Virus record (IMG/VR): IMGVR_UViG_2657245483_000004
DNA from: a virus
Lineage: Duplodnaviria > Heunggongvirae > Uroviricota > Caudoviricetes
Length of the DNA: 13,543 bases
Strand: one strand, 5' to 3'
Numbering within the stretch: the stretch's first letter is position 1; each line of letters opens with the position of its first letter. This document shows positions 2 to 12,395 of this stretch, one piece after another. The notes beneath the pieces were generated by a model. That model did no database searches. It was given only the letters and a program-made list of their open reading frames with translations, and was not told where the DNA came from. The position numbers and the translations under genes were made by a program.

Positions 2-1282
2 TTAATTTTTCATTGCTTCGTTATGGGGCATGGTTGGGGCAAACTCGCTTAACTGTGTATTTAACAAAGCTACCTGTGCATTATTGTTTTCAGACATCCA
101 TTTTCCGTATACCTGAAATACCATTTGCGCATCTGCATGGCCCATCTGGTTTGCTATAAATGCCGGGTTAGCACCAGCTGTCAGCGACCAGCAGGCATAA
201 GTATGTCTCGACTGATATGATTTTCGATGGCGGAGTCCGGCACGTTTTATCGCTGCGTCCCACATCTGCCTTATTGAGTCAACGGTAAAATGGTCACCAT
301 AATTTTTTACTCTCGCTGACACTTCAGGTTGAAAAACAAAGGTGCATTTATGTTTTTCTGTTCTGCCATACTCTCTGAGGTGAACATCAATGATATGCTC
401 TTTGCTCAGTCTCGTTAATGTCATCTGACTCCGGAGAGCGTCGATTGCTGGCTTAATAAGATGAATGACCCGATTGGTTCCCGCCTGTGTTTTTGGTACC
501 GTGAAACGGTCTTTTGCTAAATTTCTCCTGATCATCATTGTTCCATTTTTCAGATCTATGTCCTCCCATCCAAGTGCACACAGCTCACCAGGGCGAACGC
601 CAGTATAAACAGAAACACACCATAAATTTTTGGCTTGCTGATTTCTGCACGCATCGATAAGACGGATGAATTCCTCCCGCGAAAGAGGATCCGGAATGGT
701 TCTTGATTCCTTTAATGGCGAGATCCCCTTAAACGGGTTATCTGCCAGGTAACCGTTATCAACACCAAACTGGAACACGGCGTTAAGATTTGTCATGTAA
801 TTATTTACAGTTACAGCCGATCTCCCTGGTTGTGTAACAATATAGTTACTTTTGGGGATCTGGTATCCAGTCAGTAGCTCTTTACGAACCTCCAGTAATT
901 TTTCTTTATTAATCGATGAGGCAAGATTTTTTTCACCGATTATGCTCAGGATATTTTTGATGACGGCACGGTATGTGTTGAGTGATGTTTTTGCGACTTC
1001 AGTTTCTTTCAGTGCCAGAAATTTTTCAGCCAGTTCTTTTATGGTTAAATCTTGTCGGGTCTCACCAAATTTTTCCAGATTGCGTGAGGAGGGAAACTGT
1101 TTTGCATAGTCGAAAACACCAGTTTTTATTGCGTAACAAACAGAGGCGCGTAGCTCACCTGCAACGCGCCTGTTTTTTGCTGTGTCAGGAACCCCCAGGT
1201 TTTCCCTGACTCTTACGCCTTTATAAACAAACCAGATACGTAATTTCCCTCCATGGTTTTCCACGCCTGTCGGATATTTCAT
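2..1282 (-). CDS. int: Tyrosine-type phage integrase (site-specific recombinase)
   Basis: Track ORF 2..1297 (-) with TAA stop at 2-4. The C-terminal part shows tyrosine-recombinase hallmarks (...YQSRHTYACW...HADAQMVFQVYGKW...). Start placed at the second in-frame ATG (1280-1282, MKYPTGV...), which has a purine-rich stretch upstream; the first ATG at 1295-1297 has no SD. Terminal position next to an excisionase-like gene. Confidence 0.85.
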   Translation of the reverse strand: MKYPTGVENHGGKLRIWFVYKGVRVRENLGVPDTAKNRRVAGELRASVCYAIKTGVFDYAKQFPSSRNLEKFGETRQDLTIKELAEKFLALKETEVAKTSLNTYRAVIKNILSIIGEKNLASSINKEKLLEVRKELLTGYQIPKSNYIVTQPGRSAVTVNNYMTNLNAVFQFGVDNGYLADNPFKGISPLKESRTIPDPLSREEFIRLIDACRNQQAKNLWCVSVYTGVRPGELCALGWEDIDLKNGTMMIRRNLAKDRFTVPKTQAGTNRVIHLIKPAIDALRSQMTLTRLSKEHIIDVHLREYGRTEKHKCTFVFQPEVSARVKNYGDHFTVDSIRQMWDAAIKRAGLRHRKSYQSRHTYACWSLTAGANPAFIANQMGHADAQMVFQVYGKWMSENNNAQVALLNTQLSEFAPTMPHNEAMKN

Positions 1283-1316
1283 TTCAATTTCTCTCATTAG
1301 TTAGTGTGGCTTTTAG

Positions 1317-1568
1317 TCAAGTAAGATGACGTCTTGGTCTTGCTGATGCCTGGCGCTCAATCCAGCGATCAATTTCTTCCAGGTTGTAAAAGCATGGACT
1401 GTTATCCCATGGCATACCGTCATGAGCGACATGCTTATATTCCCTTCCTTCCATAAACGATTTTTCCCGGGCCTTTTTTAACGTACCTTTTTTTATTCCT
1501 TTCAGCGCAATTAACTGCTCTTCGGATACCCATTTGCCGGGAGAGACAATCATGATTACTTCGCTCAT
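1317..1568 (-). CDS. Excisionase-like small protein (putative Xis)
   Basis: 83-aa ORF immediately upstream of and co-oriented with int, 19 bp gap. Small, basic C-terminus, position typical of lambdoid xis. Start could be M1 or M6. Confidence 0.55.
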   Translation of the reverse strand: MSEVIMIVSPGKWVSEEQLIALKGIKKGTLKKAREKSFMEGREYKHVAHDGMPWDNSPCFYNLEEIDRWIERQASARPRRHLT

Positions 1569-1640
1569 CGATTTCTTTATCTCTTACATCAGACGAGCGC
1601 CGGTTGCAGAATACCAGTCACAACCGGCGACAGTTGAACA

Positions 1641-4112
1641 TTAAGAATCAGCCTGACTCGGGATCAGTTTTTGCCAGATAACTGAAACGTATTTTGCCTG
1701 GTAACGGGCGTCATCAAGTGCATTATGGCGCTCACCTTCGAATGGAATAGCCGTTCTGGCATCGAAGTCTATGGCTTTCCCCAGCTCAACGATTGTGCGT
1801 ACATCGCGATCGTTGTAGTAACGCCACGGGCAGGGGATCCCCTGCCGTTCGTATGAACGGCGCAAAATCGTGTTGTCGAAGTTGGCTCCATTTCCCCAGA
1901 CCTGAACAAAAAATTCACCGGAGTTTTCGTCGATAAATTCCCACAATTGTAACAGTGCATCATCTAACGGGATTTCATCGGTCATAATGGCAGATTGCGC
2001 TTCGCGTGATTGCTTAAGCCACCATTTAATGGTGTCCCGATCAATGACTCCGCCAGCAGTTTCCAGATCGATAGTCTTACTAAATTCCGGTCCCATATCT
2101 CCGGTTTGCGGATCGAAAAATATTGCACCTATTGAGATGATCGGGGCATCAGGATTTTTTCCCATGGTTTCAAGGTCGATCATTAGATGGTCACACGTCC
2201 TGCTGGTGGATGTGATTTCTTGATGACCGTTCACCTTAATTGAGTGATCTGCCGTCTCGCCAGTTTCATTATCGCTATCGTGATGCTGATTGCCGCCAGT
2301 GTTCTCCTTGTGTGGATGTTCAGCGCCTTCCATTTCCTCCGGATCATCTTCCTGAACTTCAATCTGATACTCTTCATCGAATGTTTCCTGGTATGTTGCG
2401 TCGCCCATTACCGCGCCACAATCAGGGCAGTTGCCGCCGCCGGTCTGACCGCAGGCGGTGCAGACTTTTTCCACTTCCTGTTGCGCCACTGATTCAGGCT
2501 GTTTCGTTTCTGGCTCGTTTTGTAACGCATTTGGGCTGTTTTGTTCCGCTTTTTGGTAGTTCCGTTCCGATTCATGCTGGTTCTGGTTCACAGAATCGCG
2601 GGTCTGGATCCCCTTAACCCATTTCGGATCATTCGGGTCACTAATCCCTTCAACAAATTCACCACGTGATGCAGCAAGCAACTTATCGGCGTCAGGCTGG
2701 ATGATATTGGCTGCCTGCATAATTTTGTTTACTTCGTCAGCGGTAACTTTTATCGGCTCTGGTTGTTCTGAATCTTCAGCGGTATCTACATTTTGCGGTA
2801 AGCCCGTGTATGTGCCATTTTTTCGGGCAAAATATTCTTCTTTTGTGATTTCAGTGGCGCCAGCAGCCAGTGCCTTATCCAGACCAGAAAGTTTGTTTGC
2901 GCGACCGTATTTTTCTCCGTCCTTATCTGCGAAGAGGAAATAGAACGGCCCCTCACGCTCTACAGATGGTTCAGCTTCCGGCGCGGTTTCATTTTTTGGG
3001 ATATCAGATACCTCAGTTTCCACTGCATCAGTTTGTGTTTCTGATGACTGGAGAACATCAACAGTGCCCAGGTCTGTTTCTTCATTCTCAAACACGCCCT
3101 TTGTCGTCAGGTATTCGCAGATATATTTGTTCAGTGCTACGGGATCTTTGTGAATGTCGATCGGACGCTCACGGACAAGGCCAAAAATAGTTTGGCGGTC
3201 GTAGCGAAGGGCATCAGGCTGTTTGCGCATTGATGCCGAGATACGCTTCCAGTCTTCGCGGTCGTTGTCGATAACTTCATTTTTTGCCCAGCGATGGATG
3301 CTGCCGTCAATGTTTCCGGCATCCACATCACCAGGCCAGAGAGCGTAGGCCAGTTCGTCATCCAGTGTTTTCCATGTCTGCTTGTATTCGCGATGAATGG
3401 CAGCAATGACCGGGCTGATTTTTCCTGTTGAATTTTCAGTGTACTGTTGATTGGCTCTGGCGCGGGCGAGATCAACAACAGACGTGTATTTTCCGGTTTC
3501 CTTGCGTTCACCTTCGCGACGTTTTTTCCAGATGCGCATCTCTGCCTGAATTTCGGGCCATTTAGCACCAGGAATACATTTATGCTTAACCCACCCAATG
3601 GCGTGCAACTTAAGCTCCGGATACATGGCGTTAACTTCTGGCATTTTCATCAACGCTTCAACGATATGTCCGTCGAATGTTGCCATGTCTTCCTGCAACA
3701 ATTCCTGTGCGCTAATAACCATATCAACGGTGATGTTTTCACATGTGTCGAACTTAACCATGACAGCGTTCTGTACTTCAGGGGCCAGCTTGTCAAAAGT
3801 GACGTTCATCGGATCGGATTCAGTCTCAACCGGGACAAAAGAAGCAGACTCCTCATCCCAGCGGTTTTCCTGCATATATTCAGCATCCCATGAATCGAGG
3901 GCAGGGCGGGGTATGCCAGGTTTATCCTCGCAGACAATAAATTTATAAGCGCAGTCCTGAGCAGCCGGATAATGTTCCAGGAATTGCCAGTGAAATTTTG
4001 CTCGAGCACGGCGTTCGTCGCCAGCTTCAATGGCTGTGGCTACAGCCACAGCGCCTTCTTCCCTTGTTGCCAGTTCGTCAGGAATAGCGGCGCAAATAAA
4101 GACTTTACTCAT
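1641..4112 (-). CDS. Large phage exonuclease (exodeoxyribonuclease VIII-like; C-terminal DEDDh 3'-5' exonuclease domain, central zinc ribbon)
   Basis: Track ORF 1641..4148 opens at a TTG. Start placed at ATG 4110-4112 (MSKVFICAAIPDE...), which has GAGG about 10 nt upstream. C-terminus shows Exo I (MIDLETMG), Exo II (WGNGANFDN) and Exo III (HNALDDARY) motifs. Central CTACGQTGGGNCPDCG is a C-x2-C-x8-C-x2-C ribbon. A mid-protein segment (DKLLAASRGEFVEGISDPNDPKWVKGIQTRD) matches my recollection of E. coli RecE-family proteins. Confidence 0.8.
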   Translation of the reverse strand: MSKVFICAAIPDELATREEGAVAVATAIEAGDERRARAKFHWQFLEHYPAAQDCAYKFIVCEDKPGIPRPALDSWDAEYMQENRWDEESASFVPVETESDPMNVTFDKLAPEVQNAVMVKFDTCENITVDMVISAQELLQEDMATFDGHIVEALMKMPEVNAMYPELKLHAIGWVKHKCIPGAKWPEIQAEMRIWKKRREGERKETGKYTSVVDLARARANQQYTENSTGKISPVIAAIHREYKQTWKTLDDELAYALWPGDVDAGNIDGSIHRWAKNEVIDNDREDWKRISASMRKQPDALRYDRQTIFGLVRERPIDIHKDPVALNKYICEYLTTKGVFENEETDLGTVDVLQSSETQTDAVETEVSDIPKNETAPEAEPSVEREGPFYFLFADKDGEKYGRANKLSGLDKALAAGATEITKEEYFARKNGTYTGLPQNVDTAEDSEQPEPIKVTADEVNKIMQAANIIQPDADKLLAASRGEFVEGISDPNDPKWVKGIQTRDSVNQNQHESERNYQKAEQNSPNALQNEPETKQPESVAQQEVEKVCTACGQTGGGNCPDCGAVMGDATYQETFDEEYQIEVQEDDPEEMEGAEHPHKENTGGNQHHDSDNETGETADHSIKVNGHQEITSTSRTCDHLMIDLETMGKNPDAPIISIGAIFFDPQTGDMGPEFSKTIDLETAGGVIDRDTIKWWLKQSREAQSAIMTDEIPLDDALLQLWEFIDENSGEFFVQVWGNGANFDNTILRRSYERQGIPCPWRYYNDRDVRTIVELGKAIDFDARTAIPFEGERHNALDDARYQAKYVSVIWQKLIPSQADS

Positions 4113-4204: not shown

Positions 4205-4396
4205 TTAAAGACCTGCCGGGATTTCGATATTATCCTGGTGAATAACTTTATCGACCGGGTAACAGTTACCGGGAATTTTCTGTTCGGTTGCTGCAGTCAT
4301 ACACTCCTGCATTGTCCTGTGAACACTGACTGCAATATCAACTGGCTCTCCGGAAACAAGAAAAACTGTCAGAACAAGCACAAATGCTGAATTCAT
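4205..4396 (-). CDS. ydfD: YdfD-like small protein with hydrophobic N-terminus (lysis-associated in Qin prophage)
   Basis: 63-aa frame MNSAFVLVLTVFLVSGEPVDIAV... inside track ORF 4205..4450. AAGGA sits 7-8 nt upstream of the ATG at 4394-4396. Its start overlaps the dicB stop as ATGA (4393-4396), implying translational coupling. Sequence matches recalled K-12 YdfD. Confidence 0.75.
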   Translation of the reverse strand: MNSAFVLVLTVFLVSGEPVDIAVSVHRTMQECMTAATEQKIPGNCYPVDKVIHQDNIEIPAGL

Positions 4397-4581
4397 TGTG
4401 CACATCCTTTTGGCATCAGACGTAAACGAGCCAGCATTGAAACAATGCATATTTTATTTAATAGCTCCCGTTCTTGTTTTCTCTTGTTAATGGCATCTTC
4501 AGTAAATACTGGGTTACTGATAGTGACACCAATTTCAAAACAACCTTCAGACGTATTAACGTTTGGTAATAACGTTTTCAT
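4393..4581 (-). CDS. dicB: Cell-division inhibitor DicB
   Basis: 62-aa frame MKTLLPNVNTSEGCFEIGVTISNPVFTEDAINKRKQERELLNKICIVSMLARLRLMPKGCAQ inside track ORF 4393..4686. GAGGA is 7 nt upstream of the ATG at 4579-4581. Matches recalled DicB; lies downstream of DicF as in the dicB operon. Confidence 0.8.
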   Translation of the reverse strand: MKTLLPNVNTSEGCFEIGVTISNPVFTEDAINKRKQERELLNKICIVSMLARLRLMPKGCAQ

Positions 4582-4750: not shown

Positions 4751-4808
4751 AAAAAGGGCGGCAGAGCAGTCACGGAGTAAAACTGATACCGCCAAACGTC
4801 ACCAGAAA
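4751..4808 (-). ncRNA. dicF: DicF small regulatory RNA
   Basis: Minus-strand sequence TTTCTGGTGACGTTTGGCGGTATCAGTTTTACTCCGTGACTGCTCTGCCGCCCTTTTT matches recalled DicF, including the 3' GC stem plus T-run (plus 4751-4770). Positioned between ydfC and dicB. Confidence 0.8.
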
Positions 4809-5974: not shown

Positions 5975-6613
5975 TTAAATATCTTGTTGAATTTTAAAGC
6001 ATACGCCCAATATGCAAGATAGATCATCCAGCATAATTGAAGGGTAGCGAGGATTCGTGGGGACTAAAAGAATATCCGGCCCTTCTATCTCCAGTTTACG
6101 AATGACAGGTGTTGTGGTCCCTTTGGGTAAGGCAAGGACAATATTTCCTGGTTGTACGGTTCGATCGGGATCAACAAAAACTGTTGAACCATTTGGGATG
6201 GAAACTCCCCCACCAGATGTTGACATACTGTCACTCTCTAGAACAACTGCAAAGGTATTGACCGGGATTTCTCCGACAAGCTGCACACAAGAGGTTATTG
6301 AGGAATTTTTCATATAATCACTCCAGCTTGCTGCCTGCTGAAGTGATAGTAGCGGAACCGTTTTTATCGGCGGTAAAGATAGATCAAGCGAATCACCTGT
6401 ATTTAACTCTCCTCCATTAAGAAGCCAATTTTCGTTTACTTTCAATATTTTTGCCAGTGAACTTATGTAACGCGAGGACGGCGCTCCTCCACCGTTCATC
6501 CATTGACTTACGGAGCCTTTTGATGCGCCAGTGCCATTGACAAGGTCTTTGCCTTTCAGGTTTAGCGCATGCATACGTTGGGTTATGCGTTCAGATATAG
6601 TTTGCTTGCTCAT
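5975..6613 (-). CDS. CI-like prophage repressor (XRE-family HTH N-terminus, S24/LexA-like peptidase C-terminus)
   Basis: Track ORF, 212 aa. N-terminal HTH-like segment (ISERITQRMHALNLKGKDLVNGTGASKGSVSQWMNG); C-terminal part of the size and Gly/Ser-rich character of S24 autoprotease domains. Divergent from a cro-like gene. Confidence 0.85.
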   Translation of the reverse strand: MSKQTISERITQRMHALNLKGKDLVNGTGASKGSVSQWMNGGGAPSSRYISSLAKILKVNENWLLNGGELNTGDSLDLSLPPIKTVPLLSLQQAASWSDYMKNSSITSCVQLVGEIPVNTFAVVLESDSMSTSGGGVSIPNGSTVFVDPDRTVQPGNIVLALPKGTTTPVIRKLEIEGPDILLVPTNPRYPSIMLDDLSCILGVCFKIQQDI

Positions 6614-10567: not shown

Positions 10568-10611
10568 GACTGCGGGTGCTTGAGGCTATCTGTCTCAGGC
10601 ATGAACACCAA

Positions 10612-10683
10612 AAGGCAGATAGAGAAAAGCCCCAGTTAACATTACGCGTCCTGCAAGACGCTTAACATTAATCTGAGGCCATA
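10612..10683 (-). ncRNA. Putative Sok-like antisense RNA (approximate bounds)
   Basis: Minus-strand promoter-like TTGACC (plus 10714-10719), 18-bp spacer, TAATCT. The transcript would be antisense to the mok start and leader. A minus-strand hairpin (GCGTC-ttgcag-GACGC) is followed by a T-rich stretch. Inferred by analogy with hok/sok loci; ends not determined. Confidence 0.3.
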
Positions 10684-10686
10684 TCT

Positions 10687-10746
10687 ATGCGACACATAGA
10701 GATTAGCCTCTTACGGACCGAAAGGTCAAGGAGAAGCAGGCTATGA
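10687..10746 (+). CDS. mok-like leader ORF (19 codons) coupled to hok
   Basis: ATG 10687 ... TGA 10744-10746, overlapping the hok ATG (10743-10745) as ATGA; AAGGAGAAG lies within it just upstream of hok. Shorter than the plasmid R1 mok, so assignment is by position. Confidence 0.4.
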   Translation: MRHIEISLLRTERSRRSRL

Positions 10747-11345: not shown

Positions 11346-12395
11346 GTGCGGGTATTACTTCGACCTGTTCTGGTACCGGAACTCGGGGTGGTGATCGTTA
11401 AGCCGGGCCGTGAATCCATGCCGGTATTCCACAATACCCGGGTACTGGTGGAGCCGGAACCGAAAAGCATGCGTAATCTGCCGTCCGGGGTCGTTCCTGC
11501 CGTTCGCCAGCCGCTGGTGGAAGACAAAACATTGCTGCCGTTTTTCAGTAACGCACGGGTGATTCGTGCTGCTGGTGGTGCTGGTGCATTGTCTGACTGG
11601 CTGTTGCGCCATATTAAATCCTGCCAGTGGCCACACGGCGATTATCACCACAGTGAAACCGTCATTCACCGTTATGGTACCGGCGCAATGGTGTTGTGCT
11701 GGCACTGCGACAACCAGCTGCGTGACCAGACATCCGAATCACTCGAGCAACTTGCTCATCAAAACCTGTCAGCATGGATGATTGACGTCATCGGTCACGC
11801 AATAAGCGGTACGCAGGAGCGTGAATTATCTCTGGCTGAATTATCCTGGTGGGCGGTCCGAAATCAGGTGGCGGATGCGCTACCTGAAGCGGTATTACGT
11901 CGCTCGCTGGGATTACCAGCGGAAAAAATCCGCTCAATGTACCGCGAAAGCGACATCGTACCGGGAGAGCAGACCGCCACCAGCATATTGAAACAGCGCA
12001 CAAAAAATCTTGCACTGTTGCCTCACGCCCACCAGGAACAACACCCACTACAGGAAAGGACGGTGGTAAGCATCACCGTTGATCCTGAGTCTCCGGAATC
12101 TTTCATGAAGCTACCTAAACGTCGCCGCTGGGTTAAGGAGAAATACACTCGCTGGGTGAAGACACAGCCGTGTGCTTGCTGCGGTATGCCAGCCGACGAT
12201 CCGCATCATCTGATTGGTCACGGGCAGGGCGGAATGGGAACCAAAGCACATGATCTTTTTGTGTTGCCTTTATGCAGAAAGCATCACGACGAACTGCATA
12301 CGGATACCGTGGCATTTGAAGAGAAGTATGGCTCCCAACTGGAGCTGATTTTTCGATTTATCGATCACGCGCTGGCAATTGGTGTGCTGGCCTAA
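11346..12395 (+). CDS. ydfU: DUF968-family protein (YdfU-like) with C-terminal Cys/His cluster
   Basis: Track ORF, 349 aa. GTG start with GGAGG 8 nt upstream; the rem stop TAA at 11342-11344 ends one nucleotide before the GTG. C-terminal PCACCGMPADDPHHLIGHGQGG...LPLCRKHHDELH. Confidence 0.8.
   Translation: MRVLLRPVLVPELGVVIVKPGRESMPVFHNTRVLVEPEPKSMRNLPSGVVPAVRQPLVEDKTLLPFFSNARVIRAAGGAGALSDWLLRHIKSCQWPHGDYHHSETVIHRYGTGAMVLCWHCDNQLRDQTSESLEQLAHQNLSAWMIDVIGHAISGTQERELSLAELSWWAVRNQVADALPEAVLRRSLGLPAEKIRSMYRESDIVPGEQTATSILKQRTKNLALLPHAHQEQHPLQERTVVSITVDPESPESFMKLPKRRRWVKEKYTRWVKTQPCACCGMPADDPHHLIGHGQGGMGTKAHDLFVLPLCRKHHDELHTDTVAFEEKYGSQLELIFRFIDHALAIGVLA

Follow-up and report, generated by a model that had tools for sequence, protein, structure and literature searches.

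The window analysed here, a stretch of 13,543 nucleotides (nt) from a virus of the Caudoviricetes (IMG/VR record IMGVR_UViG_2657245483_000004), comprises the left arm of a lambdoid prophage together with its immunity and replication region, and the closest prophage to it is one adjoining rspB in Escherichia coli EC32, at ~98% identity. Its leftward operon holds the integrase gene (int), xis, an exonuclease gene, ydfD, dicB, DicF, ydfC/B/A and the gene of an S24 repressor. The exonuclease gene, which is the subject of this work, encodes a protein of 823 amino acids (aa) in which the non-catalytic part of RecE is joined to a nuclease domain of another superfamily (Table 1). A sequence-only reading had predicted a protein of this length here, and both the minus-strand open reading frame (ORF) and the RefSeq coding sequence agree with it: the 823-aa coding sequence is likewise annotated in the closest genome, in the 98% identical prophage, and a protein look-up returned an exact match over all 823 aa, WP_057687886.1, whose 90%-identity cluster has 23,183 members. 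The gene starts at an ATG at 4112, with GAGG 9 nt upstream. An internal start at M644, which would yield the free nuclease domain, was considered and rejected, as it is preceded by a sole AGGA 14 nt upstream and lacks a good ribosome-binding site.

The gene occupies the recE/exo slot of the early-left operon, as that reading had it, the order being dicB-ydfD-exo-xis-int here and racC-recE-recT-...-xis-int in the Rac prophage. It is the sole gene between xis and ydfD (4205-4396), and xis follows directly downstream with nothing in between. The arrangement had also been described as conserved among prophages, and indeed prophages whose integrases and immunity regions differ have their genes in the order dicB-ydfD(DUF1482)-exo-xis-int at four or more attachment sites, including those at rspB, potC, ompW and tRNA-Ser.

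Table 1. Features of the exonuclease gene, its encoded domains and its operon neighbours (window coordinates).
Feature	Position	Strand	Basis
Exonuclease gene, intact ydfE type	1641..4112	-	823 aa + stop; ORF list and translation
Domain 1, alpha/beta, YdfE_N type, residues 1-204	3501..4112	-	AlphaFold2 pLDDT 81-94; homologue of the RecE N-terminus
Helical domain 2, residues 243-342	3087..3386	-	AlphaFold2 pLDDT ~90; common to RecE 278-340
Mini-domain, residues 386-436	2805..2957	-	AlphaFold2 pLDDT 78-88; beta hairpins and helices
RecE-like segment, residues 470-625: DKLLAASRGEFVEGISDPNDPKWVKGIQTRD, zinc ribbon, acidic linker	2238..2705	-	BLASTP, DNA identity
C4 zinc ribbon C551/C554/C562/C565 (CTACGQTGGGNCPDC)	2418..2462	-	Regular expression on the translation
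DEDDh 3'-5' exonuclease domain, DexA-like (PF16473), predicted	1656..2195	-	Residues 640-819; Pfam, alignment, AlphaFold2, Foldseek
Tyrosine integrase, prophage end	2..1297	-	Pfam Arm-DNA-bind_2 and Phage_integrase
Excisionase (xis)	1317..1568	-	Pfam DUF1233 excisionase, E=2e-31; RefSeq annotation
ydfD (4205-4396) and dicB (4393-4581)	4205..4581	-	RefSeq of the homologous locus; tblastn
DicF small RNA, same leftward operon	4756..4807	-	Rfam RF00039, 76.7 bits, E=8e-16

The C-terminal domain can be assigned, as firmly as computation allows, to the DEDDh superfamily and to its DexA/Rv2179c branch. Residues 642-813 match the Pfam family PF16473 (Rv2179c-like 3'-5' exoribonuclease) at E=1.1e-66, with 224.3 bits against a cutoff of 27, and the match runs end to end (model positions 2-177 of 177). 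The DnaQ-like motifs DLET, NFDN and H-x4-D, from which a DEDDh domain had been proposed, are real, and contribute D646 and E648, D746, and H796 and D801, respectively; none of these five catalytic residues varies when the protein is aligned with DexA of phage T4 and seven enterobacterial homologues. The sole sequences found by phmmer in the PDB are those of T4 DexA (8KEL and 8KEN, E=5e-6). Structure prediction, suggested earlier as a check, gives the same answer: AlphaFold2 models residues 640-819 with a pLDDT of ~88, and a Foldseek search of the PDB with this model places T4 DexA 8KEL first (E=6e-9, TM 0.64-0.72), with RNase T, REXO2, Orn and Cap18 as the next matches. In total, 108 PDB chains were matched at E<=0.001, and among the 50 matches listed all are DEDDh exonucleases.

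Both the name of the Pfam family and the nature of these structural neighbours raise the alternative that the protein is an RNA exonuclease. The founder of PF16473, Rv2179c of Mycobacterium tuberculosis, is a stand-alone bacterial RNA exonuclease with which the window protein shares the family over a full-length domain match, while no PDB sequence match to Rv2179c was found by phmmer at E<=1. RNase T, REXO2 and Orn are the next-best structural neighbours, NCBI often labels proteins of this kind '3'-5' exoribonuclease', and the operon also encodes the DicF RNA, a potential substrate, such that the enzyme might trim the 3' ends of DicF or of host RNAs, for processing or degradation, in the manner of Rv2179c, Orn or RNase T. 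We consider this highly improbable: a DNA exonuclease is the nearest relative in sequence as well as in fold, RNase T acts on DNA too (in several of its listed entries it is bound to DNA), and the enzymes to which the N-terminal part of the protein is elsewhere fused, as described below, are DNA enzymes. A 3'-5' polarity and a DNA substrate are those predicted for the domain from its family membership. T4 DexA, the closest solved structure, has the same five catalytic residues (D7, E12, D119, H186 and D191; Kang et al. 2025, PMC12153337) and belongs to the same Pfam family, yet it is a stand-alone protein of 227 aa from a lytic phage, only 26% identical and with extra loops, whereas the window protein carries a 640-aa extension of RecE type.

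This extension, referred to here as the handle, consists in the AlphaFold2 model of three folded parts joined by low-confidence linkers, and its precomputed Pfam matches are YdfE_N (PF27430) and YdfE_C (PF27432), names that come from newer releases. The zinc ribbon and the rest of the RecE-like segment have pLDDT values below 50, in a region where the alignment is shallow and disorder is not claimed. The central C4 zinc ribbon anticipated by the sequence-only reading is present, with the spacing C551-x2-C554-x7-C562-x2-C565, and is common to RecE, where its counterpart reads CNACGQTGGDNCPDC; it is followed by a linker (567-640) with 20 acidic and 3 basic residues. In a BLASTP comparison with K-12 RecE, residues 262-625 align with RecE 278-591 at 39% identity (E=7e-62), with a rise to very high identity at about residue 474, in a stretch that takes in the C4 ribbon and the acidic tail, and at the DNA level the Rac recE gene is 78% identical over window positions 2246-2688 (residues 476-623). 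An hhalign comparison of the YdfE-type with the RecE-type N-termini extends the relationship over residues 52-330 with a probability of 99.9% (E=9e-34). Taken together, these two alignments indicate that the whole non-catalytic part of RecE, some 600 residues, is homologous. The resemblance to RecE noted earlier therefore stands, yet it is not confined to one segment.

The homology ends at about RecE residue 591, precisely where the PD-(D/E)XK nuclease of RecE begins, and therefore the nuclease head has been swapped: the catalytic 5'-3' domain of RecE (~592-866) is replaced here by a DEDDh domain, and the PD-(D/E)XK family PF12684 has no Pfam match in the 823-aa protein. In line with this, the protein reaches 281 bits with the NCBIfam RecE equivalog model NF007259, far below the cutoff of 1269, and matches only model positions 271-602 of 877. 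The swap boundary falls at RecE 591/592 in each of three lineages, whose N-termini differ. A protein of the O157 type, WP_000102174.1 (L012 5663-8107, in a prophage at ompW), shares 74.6% identity with RecE 50-592 before it changes to the same DEDDh domain, and in the third lineage the break falls at RecE 591. The mini-domain is not recognisable in K-12 RecE; its motif GPFY..GRANK..EI..EEY..RK is invariant in 42 distant homologues and represents the strongest constraint in the protein. The region following RecE ~591 has been described as the minimal RecE nuclease, and the N-terminal part of RecE, although of unknown function, enhances linear-linear recombination (reviewed in PMC11611040, PMC11610958). 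The conservation and reuse of this part of RecE bear on a boost of linear-linear recombination for which the recombineering field has had no explanation.

The gene is also the intact counterpart of a familiar pseudogene. The K-12 pseudogene ydfE (b1577) is 100% identical to residues 1-256, and the K-12 Qin prophage (L003) matches the window at ~99% on both sides of a gap covering window positions 1162-3345; the window gene is therefore intact ydfE. Missing from Qin are the 3' two thirds of ydfE, xis and the 5' part of int, and an IS2 element (IS2E) lies at the junction; this gap and the insertion account for the K-12 pseudogenes ydfE and intQ. Near-full-length copies of the gene occur in 3537 of the 5426 complete E. 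coli genomes (~65%), in up to 10 places per genome, compared with only 1445 genomes for the first 828 nt of recE at coverage of at least 80%, which places it among the most common prophage genes of E. coli. It is also found in the isolated phages HannyBb (PP925841), PhiR42_1, Tritos (OV696610), mEp460_ev081 and Evi, the HannyBb protein being 99% identical to that of the window.

The truncated K-12 copy, cut by IS2, and the many partial copies in assemblies could be taken to mean that the gene is an inactive relic without function, a mosaic that arose by illegitimate recombination within recE and is now decaying. This view is already largely refuted and retains next to no probability. Measured against an 87% identical copy of the gene, dN/dS is 0.10 in domain 1, 0.09 in domain 2, 0.06 in the mini-domain and 0.12 in the DEDDh domain, compared with 0.26-1.05 in the linkers; the folded domains are under purifying selection, and the gene is live. 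Moreover, the catalytic residues are all intact, the near-full-length copies number thousands of genomes, complete isolated phages carry the gene, and a single swap boundary is shared by three lineages with different handles.

The second distinctive property of the system is the lack of a partner. The sequence-only reading had reported no annealase between xis and ydfD, where the exonuclease gene indeed stands alone, and none came to light in longer sequences. No single-strand annealing protein (SSAP) was detected by Pfam and PHROG scans in the other ORFs of the window, and by annotation there is none in the whole related EC32 prophage (L001+L008, int to ydfK) or in the complete isolated phage HannyBb; tblastn searches of the latter two with RecT, Red-beta, Erf and a Rad52-like domain gave no match. 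The search was extended by tblastn to 80 IMG/VR loci carrying the gene (1.0 Mb in total, up to 10 kb around the gene), in which the positive controls worked: RecT, Bet, Erf, the Rad52-like domain, lambda Exo, Gam, Abc2 and SSB were found in 0 of the 80 loci, and no homologue of the RecE nuclease was found in them. The SynExo systems lambda Red and RecET, each made up of an exonuclease and an annealase, share with the window gene both the slot and the timing (early-left, between kil/dicB-type genes and xis-int), yet they differ in their nuclease fold, in their polarity, which is opposite to that predicted here, and in having an annealase or Gam partner. In Rac, likewise, recE is followed by recT (and ralR/rcbA), whereas here xis follows directly. 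A predicted 3'-5' polarity and the absence of an annealase together imply that annealase-coated 3' tails would not be formed, and therefore that the protein would not act as a SynExo recombinase. Despite its position in the exo slot and its RecE handle, it is probably not a classical phage recombinase, and prophages with this gene should not be tallied as possessing a RecET-like recombination system.

The reading that we favour, with a probability of roughly 0.55, is that of a head-swapped RecE paralogue acting as an autonomous 3'-5' DNA exonuclease. The protein would be made from the early-left operon (ydfABC-DicF-dicB-ydfD-exo-xis-int) upon prophage induction or infection. Its DEDDh head would remove nucleotides from 3'-OH ends by two-metal catalysis, while the handle may supply the same targeting as in RecE, possibly by bringing the enzyme to DNA ends or to some partner from the host or the phage. 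The enzyme would work alone, degrading or trimming DNA ends during lytic development. That the handle is joined to three kinds of DNA-end enzymes, as detailed below, argues that it targets DNA ends or a partner in recombination or replication. The function so served could be the degradation of linear DNA ends of a rival phage or of the host, the trimming of 3' flaps in RecA-dependent repair, or a form of defence. What is new is the combination of a DexA-type nuclease with a RecE-type handle; the surprise lies in a head swap that is clean and recurrent, and in the partner-less state of the enzyme.

Several points weigh against this proposal. The polarity and the substrate are predictions from the protein family, whose Pfam name is that of an exoribonuclease (Rv2179c). 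The targeting role of the handle is a guess, given that its function is not known even in RecE (PMC11611040, PMC11610958), and no structural or sequence analogue indicating a target was found. The annealase search combined annotation with five or six seed proteins, below the sensitivity of full SSAP profiles, and the 80 loci are at least 93% identical and hence not independent. In addition, recombination is suggested by the other fusions of the handle, with the RecE nuclease and with a probable Rad52-like annealase, and by a stand-alone homologue situated within the Erf-SSB-gp34-Abc2 module of the Salmonella phage epsilon34.

The timing of expression is suggested by the operon itself. A consensus scan revealed no promoter-like site between ydfD and the exonuclease gene, in a search that overall returned fewer promoter-like sites than shuffled controls, and expression would therefore be expected only after derepression. 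The repressor at the head of this operon is full-length in the window, a 212-aa helix-turn-helix and S24 protein (5975-6613, minus strand), whereas the EC32 prophage retains at the same position a mere 339-nt 'LexA family' remnant (L001 17975-18313); the window prophage may thus still be SOS-inducible.

The gene had been described as functionally uncharacterised. This holds for ydfE, on the function of which no paper was found; nor was any found that mentions PF16473, and the Rv2179c papers found are unrelated to phages. It does not hold for the nuclease family, which has characterised members in T4 DexA and in its shorter E. coli homologue EcD ('HREX'). EcD is reported to degrade T4 DNA and DNA with 5-hydroxymethylcytosine (5hmC), to spare unmodified DNA and to protect cells against T4, even at leaky expression (PMC12153337). 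In DexA, W152, which stacks on 5hmC, and D169 are the residues assigned to recognition of the modified base, and the loss in EcD of the tetramer-forming Asp (DexA D90, corresponding to EcD A78) is said to make that enzyme host-safe (PMC12153337). The window protein may accordingly be viewed as an anti-phage or exclusion nuclease of the 'HREX' kind, which degrades the DNA of competitors, such as cytosine-modified T-even phages, spares that of the host and would thereby protect the lysogen or a cell under induction. The prevalence, integrity and purifying selection of the gene in E. coli are consistent with such a function, as is the company it keeps, since neighbours in operons of this kind modulate host or phage (dicB and DicF here; sieB and ralR in Rac).

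The relationship to EcD itself appears to be that of a cousin. The residue numbering of EcD, which was cloned from MIDTET... (PMC12153337), fits a stand-alone subgroup of ~189 aa (P0094: A82, or A78 counted from MID) that is 58-60% identical to the C-terminal domain of the window protein. EcD would thereby fall within the same enterobacterial PF16473 branch, its placement being by residue numbering; it has no handle and keeps the Trp. The MIDTET motif and the primer sequence are absent from 120 homologues, from the fetched loci and from 80 stand-alone loci, and the EcD accession, HAK9828821.1, did not appear in seven protein clusters looked up. Of the two determinants proposed for 5hmC specificity, the Trp is not kept in the window protein, as judged from the alignment: W152 is replaced by Y766, whereas stand-alone homologues keep the Trp. 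The D169 column holds an Ala in the MAFFT alignment, or is unaligned, with an Asp two residues later in a region with indels. The D90 position, linked to the dimer-only behaviour proposed for EcD, is still an Asp in the window protein and an Ala in P0094-type homologues, again on the basis of the alignment. Furthermore, the gene has no promoter of its own and lies in a repressor-controlled early-left operon, and it should therefore be silent in the lysogen; no PADLOC model matches the full 823-aa protein; and the claim for EcD comes from a single paper and from plasmid expression (PMC12153337). An exclusion role is for these reasons unlikely, although, should the nuclease act on rival phage DNA as claimed for EcD, it would represent a very widespread exclusion function.

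The wider family shows how the handle and the nuclease are each employed in other settings. Residues 1-625 were searched exhaustively against 1.84 billion representatives, yielding 244 relatives; a homologue search with the N-terminal 470 residues was filled by proteins at least 90% identical, and the diversity was consequently taken from the representative search, in which domain probes were run by local phmmer on 149 representatives. The handle is joined to three C-terminal domains, namely DEDDh, the RecE PD-(D/E)XK nuclease (as in relative P0132, which has a PF12684 match) and a third domain of ~270 aa. The DEDDh and RecE heads each occur with both YdfE-type and RecE-type N-termini. The third domain has no Pfam match at normal thresholds, yet in five divergent members Rad52_Rad22 is each time the best of the sub-threshold matches (E=0.003-0.04, under the gathering score), and in its AlphaFold2 model a beta sheet stands between two helices, with a long coiled coil after them; it is a probable Rad52-like annealase, as far as these matches and the model can tell. 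Proteins of this third type (~780 aa) are widespread in Enterobacter, Klebsiella, Salmonella, Citrobacter and E. albertii under the NCBI name 'exodeoxyribonuclease VIII', and their genes lie upstream of xis-int, flanked by a Gam-like gene and a Sipho_Gp157 gene.

The nuclease, in turn, exists without the handle. Many temperate enterobacterial phages have stand-alone versions of ~185 aa, whose identity to residues 641-821 is 56-60% and which too form the last early-left gene before xis (mEp460 gp26, SfV-like phages). In phage epsilon34 (L005 4775-6855) the stand-alone gp34, which likewise has no RecE-type handle, lies between SSB and Abc2, just after Erf, the only context seen in which this nuclease family falls inside a recombination module. 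We take the position of gp34 to be roughly that of abc1 in P22.

These contexts allow for another interpretation, in which the protein serves recombination or repair by trimming 3' flaps or non-homologous 3' tails, or by resecting ends to 5' overhangs, and thereby fills the exo slot in function as well; its partner would be either RecA/RecFOR of the host or an annealase that another prophage provides in trans, such as RecT of Rac. The operon slot and the handle are those of RecE, the same handle is fused to the probable Rad52-like annealase beside a Gam-like gene, and the module of epsilon34 includes a stand-alone homologue. Full-length RecE, with its handle, enhances linear-linear recombination (PMC11611040), and T4 DexA is active in double-strand-break-dependent intron homing (PMC12153337). 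On the other hand, no annealase, Gam or Abc2 was found in the 80 IMG/VR loci that carry the gene, only 1 of the 80 stand-alone-type loci has Erf, and the predicted 3'-5' polarity would destroy the very 3' single strand that annealases and RecA need. We therefore regard a dedicated recombination role as quite unlikely. The host 3'-5' exonuclease ExoI is encoded by xonA. A mutation in this gene reportedly enhances RecET-mediated in vivo linear DNA assembly, as the title of a paper has it (PMC13048471), which suggests that the loss of a 3'-5' exonuclease favours RecET and speaks further against such a role.

A broader hypothesis, which we consider possible but rather unlikely, holds that the RecE/YdfE N-terminal region is a general-purpose handle, mounted on interchangeable DNA-processing heads in temperate enterobacterial phages. 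The handle rather than the head would then define the system, and might hold on to DNA ends or attach to a host machine. The heads would comprise the 5'-3' PD-(D/E)XK nuclease, which needs RecT, the 3'-5' DEDDh nuclease, which has no partner, and the Rad52-like annealase, which would operate beside a Gam-like gene and without an exonuclease partner. The DEDDh version would constitute a one-component end-processing pathway, either an undescribed recombination route through 5' overhangs or a nuclease that attacks invading linear DNA at its ends. Such a scheme would also explain why full-length RecE surpasses the bare nuclease in linear-linear recombination. Whichever role applies to the favoured autonomous exonuclease, the recognition of a RecE with a swapped head of opposite predicted polarity corrects the current database names, which vary between 'exonuclease', '3'-5' exoribonuclease' and 'exodeoxyribonuclease VIII', the last of which is wrong.

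The remaining genes of the window are those of a lambdoid prophage. The integrase marks the prophage end, and in the closest genome the attachment site on this side adjoins rspB. YdfD and DicB, encoded directly upstream in the exonuclease operon, are 100% identical to the K-12 proteins by tblastn, and both are present in 79 of the 80 related loci. The rightward genes comprise cro, a YdaT-like gene, a replication initiator, DUF977, hok/sok and DUF968. A 271-aa ORF (12728-13540, plus strand) in a low-GC stretch (36-40%) has no match in Pfam, PHROG or PADLOC; it sits where the closest prophage ceases to match the window (cover ends at 12096) and is possibly a cargo gene of unknown kind. The sok antitoxin RNA (10574-10745, plus strand) lies beside a hokD-type toxin gene in the right arm.

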